DNA of 5,802 nt from a virus (IMGVR_UViG_2737471861_000007), one strand, 5' to 3'. Positions 1 to 5,802 are shown, counted from the first letter of the stretch. The notes: a model not told the origin generated them from the letters alone. Numbers and translations: made by a program.

Positions 1-2766
1 CTGGTCGGCGTGCAGGTGGATTCGGAGCAGTTCGGCAGCCAGCAGGTGAGCCGTAATTATCATCTTCGCGGGCGCATTCTGCAGGTGCCGTCGAATTATA
101 ACCCGCAGACGCGGCAATACAGCGGTATCTGGGACGGAACGTTAAAACCGGCATACAGCAACAACATGGCCTGGTGTCTGTGGGATATGCTGACCCACCC
201 GCGCTACGGCATGGGGAAACGTCTTGGTGCGGCAGATGTGGATAAATGGGCGCTGTATGTCATCGGCCAGAATTGCGACCAGTCGGTGCCGGACGGCTTT
301 GGCGGTACGGAGCCGCGCATCACCTGTAACGCTTACCTGACCACACAACGTAAGGCGTGGGATGTGCTCAGTGATTTCTGCTCGGCGATGCGCTGTATGC
401 CGGTATGGAACGGGCAGACGCTGACGTTCGTGCAGGACCGACCGTCGGATAAGGTGTGGACCTATAACCGCAGTAATGTGGTGATGCCGGATGATGGCGC
501 GCCGTTCCGCTACAGCTTCAGCGCCCTGAAAGACCGCCATAATGCCGTTGAGGTGAACTGGATTGACCCGGATAACGGCTGGGAGACGGCAACAGAGCTT
601 GTGGAGGACTCGCAGGCCATTGCCCGTTACGGTCGTAACGTCACGAAGATGGATGCCTTTGGCTGTACCAGCCGGGGGCAGGCACACCGCGCCGGGCTGT
701 GGCTGATTAAAACGGAGCTGCTGGAAACGCAGACGGTGGACTTCAGCGTGGGTGCCGAAGGGCTTCGCCATGTGCCGGGCGATGTCATTGAAATCTGTGA
801 TGATGACTATGCCGGTATCAGCACCGGCGGGCGCGTGCTGGCGGTAAACAGTCAGACCCGGACGCTGACGCTCGACCGTGAAATCACGCTGCCATCCTCC
901 GGCACCACGCTGATAAGCCTGGTTGACGGAAGTGGTAATCCGGTCAGCGTGGAGGTTCAGTCCGTCACCGACGGACTTAAGGTGAAAGTGAACCGGGTTC
1001 CTGACGGTGTTGCTGAATACAGCGTATGGGGGCTGAAGCTGCCGACGCTGCGCCAGCGACTGTTCCGCTGCGTGAGTATCCGTGAGAACGACGACGGCAC
1101 GTATGCCATCACCGCCGTGCAGCATGTGCCGGAAAAAGAGGCCATCGTGGATAACGGGGCGCACTTTGACGGCGACCAGAGCGGCACGGTGAATGGTGTC
1201 ACGCCGCCAGCGGTGCAGCACCTGACTGCCGAAGTCACCGCAGACAGCGGGGAATATCAGGTACTGGCCCGCTGGGACACGCCGAAGGTGGTGAAGGGGG
1301 TGAGCTTTATGCTTCGCCTGACCGTGGCAGCGGATGACGGCAGTGAGCGGCTGGTCAGCACGGCCCGGACGACGGAAACCACATACCGCTTCAGGCAACT
1401 GGCGCTGGGGCGTTACGCGCTGACGGTCCGGGCGGTAAATGCGTGGGGACAGCAGGGCGATCCGGCATCGGTATCGTTCCGGATTGCCGCCCCGGCAGCG
1501 CCGTCGCGGATTGAGCTGACGCCGGGCTATTTTCAGATAACCGCAACGCCGCATCTTGCGGTTTATGACCCGACGGTACAGTTTGAGTTCTGGTTCTCGG
1601 AAACGCGGATTACCGATATCAGGCAGGTTGAAACCACAGCCCGCTACCTTGGCACGGGGCTGTACTGGATAGCCGCCAGTATCAATATCAAACCGGGTCG
1701 TGATTATTACTTTTATATCCGCAGTGTGAACACCGTTGGCAAATCGGCATTCGTGGAGGCCGTCGGTCGGGCGAGCGATGATGCGGAAGGTTACCTGGAT
1801 TTTTTCAAAGGCAAGATAACCGAATCCCATCTCGGTAAAGAGCTGCTGGAAAAAGTTGATCTGACGGAGGATAACGCCAGCAGACTGGATGAGTTTTCGA
1901 AAGAGTGGAAGGACGCCAGTGATAAGTGGAATGCCATGTGGGCTGTTAAAATTGAGCAGACCAAAGACGGCAAACATTATGTCGCGGGTATTGGCCTCAG
2001 CATGGAGGACACGGAGGAAGGCAAACTGAGTCAGTTTCTGGTTGCCGCTAACCGTATCGCATTTATTGACCCGGCAAACGGGAATGAAACGCCGATGTTT
2101 GTGGCGCAGGGCAATCAGATATTCATGAATGACGTGTTCCTGAAACGCCTGACGGCCCCCACCATTACCAGCGGCGGTAATCCTCCGGCATTTTCCCTGA
2201 CGCCTGATGGCCGGCTGACGGCGAAAAATGCCGATATCAGTGGCAGTGTGAATGCGAACTCAGGGACGCTCAACAATGTCACGATAAATGAAAACTGTAC
2301 GATTAAGGGCATGCTGGAGGCGACCCAGGTCAGAGGTGACTTCGTTAAAGCAGTATCAAAATCATTCCCGAAGAAGGCTGGTACGTGGGGTAACACAGAA
2401 ACACCCAACGGGACGGTTACAGTTACCATCAGCGATGATCATAACTTTGACCGTCAAATCATTATTCCGCCCATTATTTTTAACGGTGTCGCATATGACG
2501 ATCCGGGGAGCGGAAATAACCCCGGAGGCACGCGATACACGGGTTATGGTTTTGAAGTTCGCAAAAACGGCGTATTAATCGCATCCAGAGAAACTAAAGG
2601 GGCCATTCCCGGTAGCTACAGTGCGGTTATTGATATGCCGAGTGGCAGGGGAAGCGTCACTCTGGAGTTTAAGGTTTTCCAGAAAGGCAATCAGGGGGCA
2701 GGTAATATCACCGACTGTACGGTGATTGTGACCAAAAAAGCCGCTTCCGGCATCAGTATTCGTTGA
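1..2766 (+). CDS. J: Tail-tip host-specificity protein J (central tail fibre), C-terminal 918 codons; 5'-partial. The frame is open from base 1, so the GTG at 10 used by the ORF track is not the real start. Stop is TGA at 2764-2766.
   Basis: Single 2.7-kb open frame with no internal stops. The translation ([46 protein letters not shown]...[21 protein letters not shown]...[16 protein letters not shown]...) matches the lambda gpJ sequence as I recall it over most of its length. It lies immediately upstream of lom and stf, as in lambda. The middle of the protein (about nt 1195-1780) contains two fibronectin-III-like segments ([10 protein letters not shown]...[17 protein letters not shown]; FQITATP...[14 protein letters not shown]). 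Confidence 0.92.
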
Positions 2767-2786
2767 AATTGTTATAACCCATATAA

Positions 2787-2813
2787 GGGCACCAGAAATG
2801 GTGCCTTTTTTAT
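2787..2813 (+). terminator. Rho-independent terminator downstream of J: 6-bp GC-rich stem GGCACC/GGTGCC with loop AGAAAT, followed by TTTTTTATT
   Basis: Read directly from the sequence: gGGCACCagaaatGGTGCCttttttatt, starting 21 nt after the J stop codon. The short stem makes it a moderate-strength candidate. Confidence 0.6.
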
Positions 2814-2824
2814 TGCAGAAAAGC

Positions 2825-2830
2825 GAGAGG
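2825..2830 (+). promoter_or_regulatory. Shine-Dalgarno sequence (GAGAGG) for lom, 5 nt upstream of the ATG
   Basis: The sequence reads GAGAGGtaattATG, with canonical purine-rich content and spacing. Confidence 0.55.
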
Positions 2831-2835
2831 TAATT

Positions 2836-3435
2836 ATGCGTAAACTTTATGCCGCCATTTTGTCCGCAGCCATCTGTCTGGCCGTATCCGGTGCGCCTGC
2901 ATGGGCGTCTGAACATCAGTCCACGCTGAGCGCGGGCTATCTTCATGCCTCGACGAACGTTTCCGGCAGCGATGATCTGAACGGGATTAACGTGAAATAC
3001 CGTTATGAGTTTACGGACACGCTGGGAATGGTGACGTCATTCAGCTATGCAGGAGACAAGAATCGCCAGCTTACCCGTTACAGCGATACCCGCTGGCATG
3101 AAGATTCCGTGCGTAACCGCTGGTTCAGCGTGATGGCGGGGCCGTCTGTACGCGTGAATGAATGGTTCAGCGCGTATGCGATGGCAGGCGTGGCTTACAG
3201 CCGTGTGTCGACTTTTTCCGGGGATTACCTCCGCGTAACTGACAACAAGGGGAAAACGCACGATGTGCTGACCGGAAGTGATGACGGTCGCCACAGCAAC
3301 ACGTCTCTGGCGTGGGGGGCTGGCGTGCAGTTTAACCCGACCGAATCCGTGGCCGTTGACGTCGCTTATGAAGGCTCCGGCAGCGGTGACTGGCGTACCA
3401 ACAGTTTCATCGTGGGTGTCGGTTATAAATTCTGA
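2836..3435 (+). CDS. lom: Lom outer-membrane protein, Ail/Lom/PagC/OmpX-type beta-barrel family, 199 aa, with a predicted 24-aa signal peptide (2836-2907, cleavage after AWA)
   Basis: Complete ORF with ATG start and an upstream RBS. The N-terminus ([24 protein letters not shown]) is a typical Sec signal peptide. The C-terminus ([26 protein letters not shown]) matches the lambda Lom C-terminus as I recall it and ends in the aromatic residue typical of outer-membrane beta-barrels. Other motifs ([21 protein letters not shown]) fit the Ail/Lom family. The position between J and stf is the classical lambda lom locus. Confidence 0.92.
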
Positions 3436-3461
3436 TTAGCCAGGTAACACAGTGTTATGAC

Positions 3462-3489
3462 AGCCCGCCGTTTCAGGCGGGCTTTTTTG
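3462..3489 (+). terminator. Rho-independent terminator downstream of lom: 8-bp stem AGCCCGCC/GGCGGGCT with loop GTTTCA, followed by TTTTTTG
   Basis: Read directly from the sequence: AGCCCGCCgtttcaGGCGGGCTtttttt, beginning 27 nt after the lom stop codon and ending about 10 nt before the stf start. Perfect GC-rich stem followed by a T-tract. Confidence 0.7.
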
Positions 3490-3499
3490 TGGGGTGAAT

Positions 3500-5802
3500 A
3501 TGGCAGTAAAGATTTCAGGTGTACTGAAAGACGGCACAGGAAAACCGGTACAGAACTGCACAATCCAGCTGAAAGCAAAACGTAACAGTACCACTGTGGT
3601 GGTGAACACGCTGGCCTCAGAAAATCCGGATGAAGCCGGGCGTTACAGCATGGACGTTGAGTACGGTCAGTACAGCGTTATTCTGTTGGTGGAGGGATTC
3701 CCGCCGTCACATGCCGGGACCATCACCGTGTATGAAGATTCTCAACCCGGTACGCTGAATGATTTTCTCGGTGCCATGACGGAGGATGATGCCCGTCCGG
3801 AGGCACTGCGCCGTTTTGAACTGATGGTGGAAGAGGTGGCGCGTAACGCGTCCGCGGTGGCACAGAACACAGCAGCCGCGAAGAAGTCAGCCAGCGATGC
3901 CAGCACATCAGCCCGTGAGGCGGCAACCCATGCGACTGATGCTGCAGGCTCAGCACGCGCAGCCAGCACGTCAGCCGGACAGGCCGCGTCGTCGGCTCAG
4001 TCAGCGTCTTCCAGCGCAGGAACGGCATCAGCAAAGGCCACTGAAGCATCAAAAAGTGCTGCCGCTGCAGAGTCCTCAAAAAGCGCGGCGGCTACCAGTG
4101 CCGGTGCAGCGAAAACGTCAGAAACGAATGCGGCAGCGTCACAACAATCAGCCGCCACGTCTGCATCCACCGCGACCTCGAAAGCGTCAGAAGCTGCCAC
4201 GTCAGCCAGGGATGCGGCGGTCTCAAAAGAGGCGGCAAAATCATCAGAAACGAGCGCAGCCTCGAGCGCCGGTAGCGCAGCTTCCTCGGCAACGGCGGCA
4301 GGAAATTCCGCGAAGGCGGCAAAAACGTCCGAGACGAACGCTAAGTCTTCTGAAACGGCAGCGGGACAGAGTGCCTCAGCTGCGGCAGGCTCAAAAACAG
4401 CGGCTGCGTCGTCTGCCAGTGCAGCGTCAACAAGTGCCGGGCAGGCCTCAGCCAGTGCCACCGCCGCCGGAAAATCGGCAGAAAGCGCCGCATCGTCCGC
4501 TTCAACAGCCACAACGAAGGCTGGCGAAGCCACTGAACAGGCCAGTGCAGCAGCGAGGTCTGCTTCCGCAGCGAAGACATCCGAGACGAACGCGAAAGCG
4601 TCGGAAACCAGTGCAGAATCCTCAAAAATGGCAGCCGCATCGTCCGCCAGTTCGGCGGCGTCATCGGCATCATCTGCGTCTGCTTCAAAAGATGAGGCGA
4701 CCAGACAGGCGTCAGCAGCGAGGGGCAGCGCCACGACGGCATCCACGAAGGCGACAGAGGCTGCTGGCAGTGCGGCAGCGGCAGCACAGAGCAAAAGTAC
4801 GGCAGAATCCGCAGCAACGCGCGCTGAGACAGCGGCAAAACGGGCAGAGGATATTGCATCCGCCGTGGCGCTTGAGGATGCGAGCACGACGAAAAAGGGG
4901 ATAGTCCAGCTAAGCAGCGCGACTAACAGCACTTCCGAGTCACAGGCGGCAACGCCAAAAGCCGTTAAGGCCGCGTATGACCTGGCTAACGGGAAATACA
5001 CCGCACAGGATGCAACGACAGCACAGAAAGGGATAGTTCAGCTCAGCAGCGCGACCAACAGCACATCTGAAATGCTGGCGGCAACGCCAAAGTCGGTAAA
5101 GGCAGCCTATGACCTTGCTAACGGGAAATATACTGCTCAGGACGCTACGACAGCACAAAAAGGAATTGTCCAGCTCAGTAGTGCAACCAACAGCGCATCT
5201 GAAACGCTTGCCGCGACACCGAAAGCAGTGAAAGCAGCTAATGATAATGCGAATGGTCGGGTACCTTCTGCCCGTAAGGTGAATGGTAAGGCGCTTTCAG
5301 CGGATATAACACTGACGCCGAAAGATATTGGTACGCTTAACTCAACAACAATGTCCTTCAGCGGTGGTGCTGGTTGGTTCAAATTAGCAACGGTAACCAT
5401 GCCACAGGCGAGTTCTGTTGTTTCAATTACGTTGATTGGTGGCGCGGGATTTAACGTGGGGTCACCTCAACAGGCAGGTATATCTGAACTTGTTTTGCGT
5501 GCAGGTAATGGTAATCCGAAGGGGATTACTGGTGCTTTATGGCAGCGCACATCGACAGGGTTTACAAATTTTGCCTGGGTCAATACATCTGGTGATACTT
5601 ACGATATTTACGTTGCAATCGGAAATTATGCGACTGGTGTAAATATTCAATGGGATTATACCAGTAATGCCAGCGTGACTATTCATACGTCACCAGCATA
5701 TTCTGCTAATAAGCCGGAAGGGTTAACGGACGGTACAGTTTATTCACTCTATACGCCATCAGAGCAGTTTTATCCGCCTGGCGCACCAATCCCGTGGCCA
5801 TC
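3500..5802 (+). CDS. stf: Side tail fibre protein Stf, N-terminal 767 codons; 3'-partial. The frame stays open to the window edge, which is why it is absent from the ORF track.
   Basis: ATG at 3500-3502 preceded by a G-rich SD (GTGGGG). I translated the frame by hand and found it open to 5802. The N-terminus (MAVKISGVLKDGTGKPVQNCTIQLKA...RYSMDVEYGQYSVIL...FPPSHAGTITVYEDSQPGTLNDFL...) matches lambda Stf (orf-401) as I recall it. This is followed by an Ala/Ser/Thr-rich shaft, a 'KGIVQLSSATNSTSE..AATPKAVK' fibre repeat, and the conserved 'FYPPGAPIPWP' motif at the window end. Confidence 0.9.
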   Translation, partial: MAVKISGVLKDGTGKPVQNCTIQLKAKRNSTTVVVNTLASENPDEAGRYSMDVEYGQYSVILLVEGFPPSHAGTITVYEDSQPGTLNDFLGAMTEDDARPEALRRFELMVEEVARNASAVAQNTAAAKKSASDASTSAREAATHATDAAGSARAASTSAGQAASSAQSASSSAGTASAKATEASKSAAAAESSKSAAATSAGAAKTSETNAAASQQSAATSASTATSKASEAATSARDAAVSKEAAKSSETSAASSAGSAASSATAAGNSAKAAKTSETNAKSSETAAGQSASAAAGSKTAAASSASAASTSAGQASASATAAGKSAESAASSASTATTKAGEATEQASAAARSASAAKTSETNAKASETSAESSKMAAASSASSAASSASSASASKDEATRQASAARGSATTASTKATEAAGSAAAAAQSKSTAESAATRAETAAKRAEDIASAVALEDASTTKKGIVQLSSATNSTSESQAATPKAVKAAYDLANGKYTAQDATTAQKGIVQLSSATNSTSEMLAATPKSVKAAYDLANGKYTAQDATTAQKGIVQLSSATNSASETLAATPKAVKAANDNANGRVPSARKVNGKALSADITLTPKDIGTLNSTTMSFSGGAGWFKLATVTMPQASSVVSITLIGGAGFNVGSPQQAGISELVLRAGNGNPKGITGALWQRTSTGFTNFAWVNTSGDTYDIYVAIGNYATGVNIQWDYTSNASVTIHTSPAYSANKPEGLTDGTVYSLYTPSEQFYPPGAPIPWP
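3850..4876 (+). repeat. Low-complexity Ala/Ser/Thr/Lys/Glu-rich shaft region of Stf, built from long imperfect direct repeats that include three copies of a roughly 27-nt core (4106-4132, 4315-4341, 4568-4594) encoding AAKTSETNA
   Basis: Seen in the sequence: gcagcgaaaacgtcagaaacgaatgcg, gcggcaaaaacgtccgagacgaacgct and gcagcgaagacatccgagacgaacgcg, each followed by Ser/Ala-rich stretches (SAGQASAS, ASSASAAS). The approximate period between copies is 210-250 nt. Confidence 0.65.
4877..5245 (+). repeat. Three tandem in-frame copies of a 132-nt (44-aa) phage tail-fibre repeat in Stf, at 4877-5008, 5009-5140 and 5141 to about 5245 (third copy diverges at its end)
   Basis: Translations of the three copies: DASTTKKGIVQLSSATNSTSESQAATPKAVKAAYDLANGKYTAQ; DATTAQKGIVQLSSATNSTSEMLAATPKSVKAAYDLANGKYTAQ; DATTAQKGIVQLSSATNSASETLAATPKAVKAANDNANGR... 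The copies differ mainly at synonymous positions (for example ata gtc cag cta / ata gtt cag ctc / att gtc cag ctc). Confidence 0.85.

Follow-up and report, generated by a model that had tools for sequence, protein, structure and literature searches.

On the basis of sequence comparison, the tip domain of the central tail fibre protein J analysed here can be assigned to the phage 434 (h434) host-range allele of the receptor-binding domain (RBD). Nucleotides 2310-2727 very probably code for an Ig-like RBD at the tip of a trimeric central tail fibre, in the h434 form and with OmpC as the predicted receptor. This domain is already known and is commonplace in E. coli prophages.

The window, which is the complete stretch of 5,802 nt that was analysed, is probably a fragment of a prophage, as its best matches are E. 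coli chromosomes with 96-97% sequence identity; the best complete genome reaches 96.7% over the full window. All annotated features are encoded on the plus strand. The window opens within a lambda-type J gene, of which the 3' part (1-2766, frame 1, stop codon at 2764-2766) with the last 921 codons is present. Its conserved part (1-2309) corresponds to residues 1-770 of the fragment and to residues 217-986 of full-length J, and spans the end of the hub, two Ig/FNIII domains, the alpha-helical shaft and the beta-prism fibre. A conserved linker (2263-2298, fragment residues 755-766) is located directly 5' of the variable receptor-binding cassette of the 434/h434 type (2310-2727, fragment residues 771-909, residues 987-1125 of J). 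The gene is completed by a conserved C-terminal tail with the stop codon (2728-2766), which carries the motif KKAxxGISI and forms the right cassette junction for most alleles. A terminator-like hairpin with a T-run (2785-2808) follows J, and a second terminator-like hairpin (3462-3483) follows lom (2836-3435, 199 codons), which codes for an outer-membrane beta-barrel protein of the Ail/Lom family (Pfam Ail_Lom, E = 1e-118) and represents the 434-type allele. In the phage 434 record, terminators are annotated at the same two places. The side tail fibre gene stf starts with an ATG at 3500 and remains open up to the end of the window at 5802, so that its N-terminal 767 codons are covered; it matches the Pfam families phage_tail_N and Phage_fiber_2.

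Assignment of the J tip domain

The Pfam domains of the J fragment occur in the same order as in full lambda gpJ, namely Phage-tail_3, Ig_J (fragment residues 394-498), Ig_J_second (500-602), Phage_Tail_Tip (630-756) and Ig_GpJ_C. The latter family (PF12421, C-terminal receptor binding domain) matches residues 785-920 with 89.8 bits compared to a cut-off of 26.2. The match covers profile positions 1-134 of 135 and ends one residue short of the stop codon. The C-terminal protein sequence quoted in an initial sequence-only reading was confirmed as the actual end of the ORF that stops at 2766. Profile score, extreme C-terminal placement and the Ig-like beta-sandwich fold of the predicted structure all agree with this family. 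The structure was predicted as an AlphaFold2 monomer for fragment residues 721-921, using an alignment of 27 sequences, and has a moderate confidence (mean pLDDT 80.8). When the model was compared to the PDB with Foldseek, the top four matches (E = 1e-15 to 1e-17, query-normalised TM scores 0.60-0.63) were the lambda gpJ fibre (8xcj, 8xck), the A8 gpJ fibre (9wca) and A8 gpJ with OmpC (9wcb), while the next match had only E = 7e-5. A PDB sequence search retrieved the same proteins, lambda gpJ (8iyk, 8xcj and others) and 'A8 gpJ 713' (9wca, 9wcb). The comparison with the lambda J RBD that had been proposed from the sequence thus retrieves the lambda and A8 gpJ fibres as best fold matches.

The J fragment was aligned with the J proteins of lambda (NC_001416), phage 434 (OL657226) and mEp460_ev081. 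Fragment residues 1-766 are 96.5% identical to lambda J, while residues 767-921 share only about 40% identity with it and the alignment has 17 gapped positions. This bears out the earlier impression of patchy similarity at the C-terminus and near-identity upstream, with a drop that had been expected near residue 750 and is seen after residue 766. For the cassette (residues 771-909), the identity is 37.5%, and it lacks the high identity that would mark it as the LamB-binding allele of lambda (J residues about 987-1132).

At the DNA level, blastn matches to lambda are confined to 1-2322 (94.2%) and 3308-4408, and no DNA match to lambda exists in 2323-2766. In bins of 30 nt, the identity with lambda does not fall below 93% as far as nt 2199 and amounts to 80% at 2260-2319. 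From 2320 to about 3310 it is 23-67%, except for an island of 93% at 2980-3009, and from about 3370 it is back at 83-100%. The sequences thus pass from 94% identity to being unalignable within about 60 nt, with flanks of 87-95% on both sides. Divergence had been proposed to start at about 2270, and the true left junction lies no more than about 40 nt away.

Upstream of the linker, a short segment (2200-2229) shows only 70-73% DNA identity to both lambda and 434, although it is flanked by sequence with 93-100% identity. In its protein sequence, the window agrees with lambda and with E. albertii-type sequences but not with 434 (SPPVFSLTSDGK).

The similarity to phage 434 passes through both lambda junctions. 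A single blastn segment with 94.9% identity is collinear over window positions 1-3921, and mEp460_ev081 is collinear over 1-5119 (95.4%). Within 2320-3310, the 30-nt bins have 77-100% identity to 434 and mostly reach at least 90%. Of the 155 residues at positions 767-921, 148 are the same in the J protein of phage 434 (UMO75286.1; 95.5%, no gaps), while mEp460_ev081 J is 96.8% identical over this region. The values for the cassette (771-909) are 95.0% and 96.4%, respectively, and along the whole J fragment protein identity to both phages stays at 95-98%.

The dN/dS ratio relative to 434 is 0.07 for the conserved part of J (1-2309) and 0.086 for the cassette. Within the 434-type allele class it is 0.06-0.09 across the RBD, indicating purifying selection, and this speaks for a conserved function. 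When 2270-2766 was compared to phage records with Megablast, 74 records were found, all with 90-95.2% identity. These include cdtI, mEp332, Ayreon, Perceval and many Stx1a- and Stx2c-converting phages.

The 434-type cassette was found in 2110 of 5426 complete E. coli genomes, at 2856 places and with 90-99% identity. Matches to the A8-type cassette occur in 2458 of these genomes, about 1515 of them at 90% identity or above. The window allele is therefore one of the two commonest natural ones. The LamB-type cassette of lambda is present in just 98 of the 5426 genomes, always with at least 99% identity and with laboratory strains as the three top matches, and the LamB-binding tip of lambda is thus a rarity among natural E. 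coli prophages.

Cassette borders and exchange of alleles

Phages with other alleles narrow down the cassette borders further than lambda does. Three of the comparison phages, PhiR30_1, Stx2a_JNE082796 and Stx2a_WGPS8, are A8-type, while Stx2a_2409 represents another type. On the left side, similarity ends at 2309 for the three A8-type phages, at 2322 for lambda and at 2354 for Stx2a_2409. On the right side, the A8-type and Stx2a_2409-type phages become similar again precisely from 2728 onwards, 39 nt ahead of the end of J. As similarity to other alleles stops at 2309 and resumes at 2728, the cassette was set to 2310-2727. These precise limits, from the linker to the KKAxxGISI tail, are useful for the design of chimeras. 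Across the 27 aligned RBD alleles, the linker (2263-2298) is invariant or nearly so, and it is likely to be the left recombination junction. The C-terminal KK..GIS motif is nearly invariant in the same 27 sequences.

For lambda, which has a different lom allele as well, the non-homologous stretch is therefore longer (about 2320-3310). We considered the possibility that the RBD and lom travel as one module. As a general rule this was rejected, as similarity to the A8-type and Stx2a_2409-type phages resumes at 2728; among the compared phages, only lambda differs in lom too.

The aligned RBDs fall into about seven discrete classes which have invariant scaffold residues in common. Between alleles, all indels are located in predicted loops, while substitutions are distributed over strands and loops. 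The idea that substitutions are confined to loops was not supported, as strand positions are 42% identical and loop positions 35% (Mann-Whitney p = 0.44).

Arms-race selection classically acts on RBDs, and together with the spread of substitutions over strands and loops this might suggest that the domain of a lambda-like ancestor diverged in place under rapid diversifying selection, with no exchange of a cassette. We consider this extremely unlikely. The change from 94% identity to unalignable sequence within about 60 nt, between flanks of 87-95%, is against it, as is the low omega within the allele class. The RBD identities obtained by tblastn over phage records are bimodal, with 74 matches at 90% or above, 184 below 60% and none in between. 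In addition, the A8-type cassette is shared by Stx phages and PhiR30_1 and occurs in J genes with bodies that are only 73-77% identical to that of the window. Taken together, the discrete classes, the bimodal identities and the presence of a cassette in diverged J bodies fit an exchange of cassettes but not divergence in place.

It appears that homologous recombination within conserved flanks shuffles the alleles among lambdoid prophages. The upstream flank would be the linker, while the KKAxxGISI tail, the terminator and lom would serve as downstream flanks. The earlier proposal of a domain swapped by horizontal exchange is supported by the 434 allele, the DNA collinearity with 434 and the bimodal identities. 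However, 'swapped' holds only relative to lambda, the allele of which is the rare one (98 compared to 2110 of 5426 genomes), and the swap is thus defined relative to a rare reference.

Several other mosaic spots were observed in the window. A second one within J, upstream of the RBD, is found at 1851-1934 (84 nt, 28 residues) in the alpha-helical shaft. At this position, ev099 and E. coli SCPM-O-B-8794 carry 169 nt without detectable similarity; the J gene of ev099 is overall 84 nt (28 codons) longer. The lom gene with its terminator (2815-3482) behaves as a precise insertion/deletion cassette. It is missing from Escherichia sp. E1V33 and from a 1350-nt contig of a Collinsella metagenome-assembled genome (MAG), where the equivalent of window position 2814 abuts that of 3483. 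In this lom-less junction, the ribosome-binding site of stf directly follows the T-run of the J terminator (L006 3542-3546; L005 1236-1240). Located between two terminators, lom is a textbook 'moron'.

The stf gene is also mosaic, with similarity ending at 3921 for phage 434, at 4408 for lambda and at 5119 for mEp460_ev081. Despite this mosaicism, several complete E. coli genomes span the whole window at 96-97% identity. A 132-nt tandem repeat in stf (4893-5205, 2.4 copies, 81% match) corresponds to the Pfam Phage_fiber_2 repeats. Two long ORFs overlap stf, one on the plus strand in another frame (3897-4904, 335 residues) and one on the minus strand (3997-5001, 334 residues). Their products are of low complexity (Arg/Pro/Gln-rich and Ala-rich, respectively) and resemble the annotated antisense orf206b of lambda. 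These ORFs are probably by-products of the GC-rich stf sequence with its skew of A over T (AT skew 0.3-0.5).

Base composition of J

In the sequence-only reading, the RBD had been described as visibly more AT-rich than the preceding sequence. The GC values estimated by eye were right and the quoted AT-rich run was located at 2456-2484. Nucleotides 1-2268 have a GC content of 58.2%, compared to 48.2% in 2269-2766, with GC3 values of 68.9% and 50.6%, respectively (Fisher p about 1e-5). However, the shift does not occur at about 2270. Maximum likelihood places the GC change point of 1-2766 at nt 1527, with a drop from 61.2% to 50.4%, and a second change point within 1-2766 is unsupported (permutation p = 0.95). 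When the RBD is compared to the preceding 740 nt, there is no significant difference in GC (48.2% versus 52.0%, p = 0.20) or in GC3 (p = 0.07). The step at nt 1527 is located where the two Ig/FNIII domains meet. The same step occurs in lambda and 434, within sequence that is common to all three (94-100% identity), and it may represent an old compositional seam inside conserved J.

The GC difference might suggest that the RBD was acquired from a compositionally foreign donor of low GC content outside the lambdoid gene pool; the GC content of the lambda cassette (55.6%) is also above the 48.2% of the window RBD. This is very unlikely. The junction does not coincide with a GC change point, the only one being that at 1527 in conserved sequence. 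The conserved 780 nt upstream, which are shared, have 51-52% GC in every phage compared. The cassette itself has 48-49% GC, similar to the A8-type and Stx2a_2409-type cassettes (48-51%) and within the 48-56% found for the RBD cassettes of other alleles. Moreover, a scan of GTDB with one genome per species found the 434-type allele only in E. coli, in Escherichia sp. E1V33 and in the 1350-nt Collinsella-MAG contig, the taxonomic assignment of which is probably a binning error. Protein matches to the allele are from E. coli, E. albertii and Shigella.

Foreign composition, which had been advanced as evidence of exchange, therefore has to be given up in that role, as the GC content does not break at the junction and is similar in other alleles and in the flank. 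Composition (GC or codon-based) was also rejected as a marker of the swap, given the change point at 1527 and an RBD without significant difference to the 740 nt upstream. The region is AT-richer than the J average, yet the junction is unmarked by composition.

Receptor use and comparison with known systems

In lambda, the C-terminal domain of J binds LamB. The h434 host-range determinant has been in genetic use since the 1960s. Its sequence has been reported (PMC9119081), and replacement of lambda J by 434 J retargets the phage to OmpC, which is the receptor of phage 434 (PMC3509688, PMC11101478, PMC12502783). The binding of the 434 fibre to trimeric OmpC has also been modelled with AlphaFold3 (PMC12502783). 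According to the lambda structures, four bottom loops of the Ig-like RBD trimer enter the porin at its extracellular mouth, and the splaying that occurs upon binding is relayed up the fibre so that the tail opens (PMC11101478).

By analogy to the structures of lambda and A8 gpJ, the bottom loops of the three RBDs of the window fibre would enter a trimeric porin at its extracellular mouth, and porin binding would be transmitted upwards along the fibre, leading to opening of the tail tip. Presumably, lambda and the window share this mechanism, with a trimer whose loops enter a trimeric porin. Given the 95-97% identity to phage 434, this porin would be OmpC and not LamB. A receptor other than LamB had been considered possible from the sequence; this is supported by the homology to 434, which points to OmpC. 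For annotation, this means that the central fibre of this prophage should be read as OmpC-type and not as LamB-type. The value as a discovery is small, as h434 has long been known and members of the family have already been used to retarget lambda particles (PMC11338833).

Within residues 767-921, seven substitutions lead from the window to the 434 RBD (S788A, A793V, N803D, V830I, R883G, Q894H, G899R). Some of these sites are in predicted loops, with R883 being part of PSGRGS and G899 part of NQGAG. It may be asked if such changes have shifted the specificity of a 434-type domain, either to a particular OmpC variant or to another porin such as OmpF. Single or few substitutions in J alter porin use in lambda and phage 21 (PMC11336670), and the OmpC-binding chimeras A8 and 1A2 tell OmpC variants apart (PMC11338833). 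However, the RBD is under strong purifying selection (dN/dS 0.06-0.09). In addition, the window residues at 803, 894 and 899 are common to mEp460_ev081, while R883, Q894 and G899 are also present in the widespread E. coli cluster P0001. As the window residues are shared with relatives, it is phage 434 and not the window which is the outlier at 803, 894 and 899. A shift in specificity has therefore only a slight chance of being correct, and we retain the reading as an h434-type domain that would use OmpC. It is also unlikely, if marginally less so, that the seven substitutions tune recognition to particular natural OmpC variants. If true, the common 434-type allele would represent a family of sub-specificities which track OmpC polymorphism in E. 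coli. A search of the literature on experimental receptors of close relatives (mEp460, mEp332 and the PhiR phages) found nothing relevant.

Three known systems can be compared to the window. The lambda gpJ RBD (8XCJ/8XCK) shares the Ig_GpJ_C family, the predicted Ig-like fold and the tip position on a fibre that is 96.5% identical. It differs by its LamB receptor and by a cassette identity of 37.5%, with the 17 gapped positions all being located in predicted loops. Its Lom protein is also distant from that of the window (46.5% identity, compared to 95.5% for the Lom protein of 434).

The A8 gpJ chimera (9WCA/9WCB) is the best PDB sequence match (E = 2e-58) and also a top fold match. Natural gpJ C-termini grafted onto lambda, as in the chimeras A8 and 1A2, result in OmpC-dependent particles and show that these C-termini are portable cassettes which retarget lambda to OmpC (PMC11338833). 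However, the RBD of the A8 gpJ allele is only about 50% identical to that of the window, which thus does not belong to the A8-type class that is carried by PhiR30_1 and many Stx phages.

The closest of the three is phage 434, the collinearity of which covers J, the terminator, lom and the start of stf. It differs from the window by about 5% DNA divergence, which is mostly synonymous (dS 0.17-0.26), by the seven substitutions in the RBD, and by an stf gene that diverges after nt 3921.
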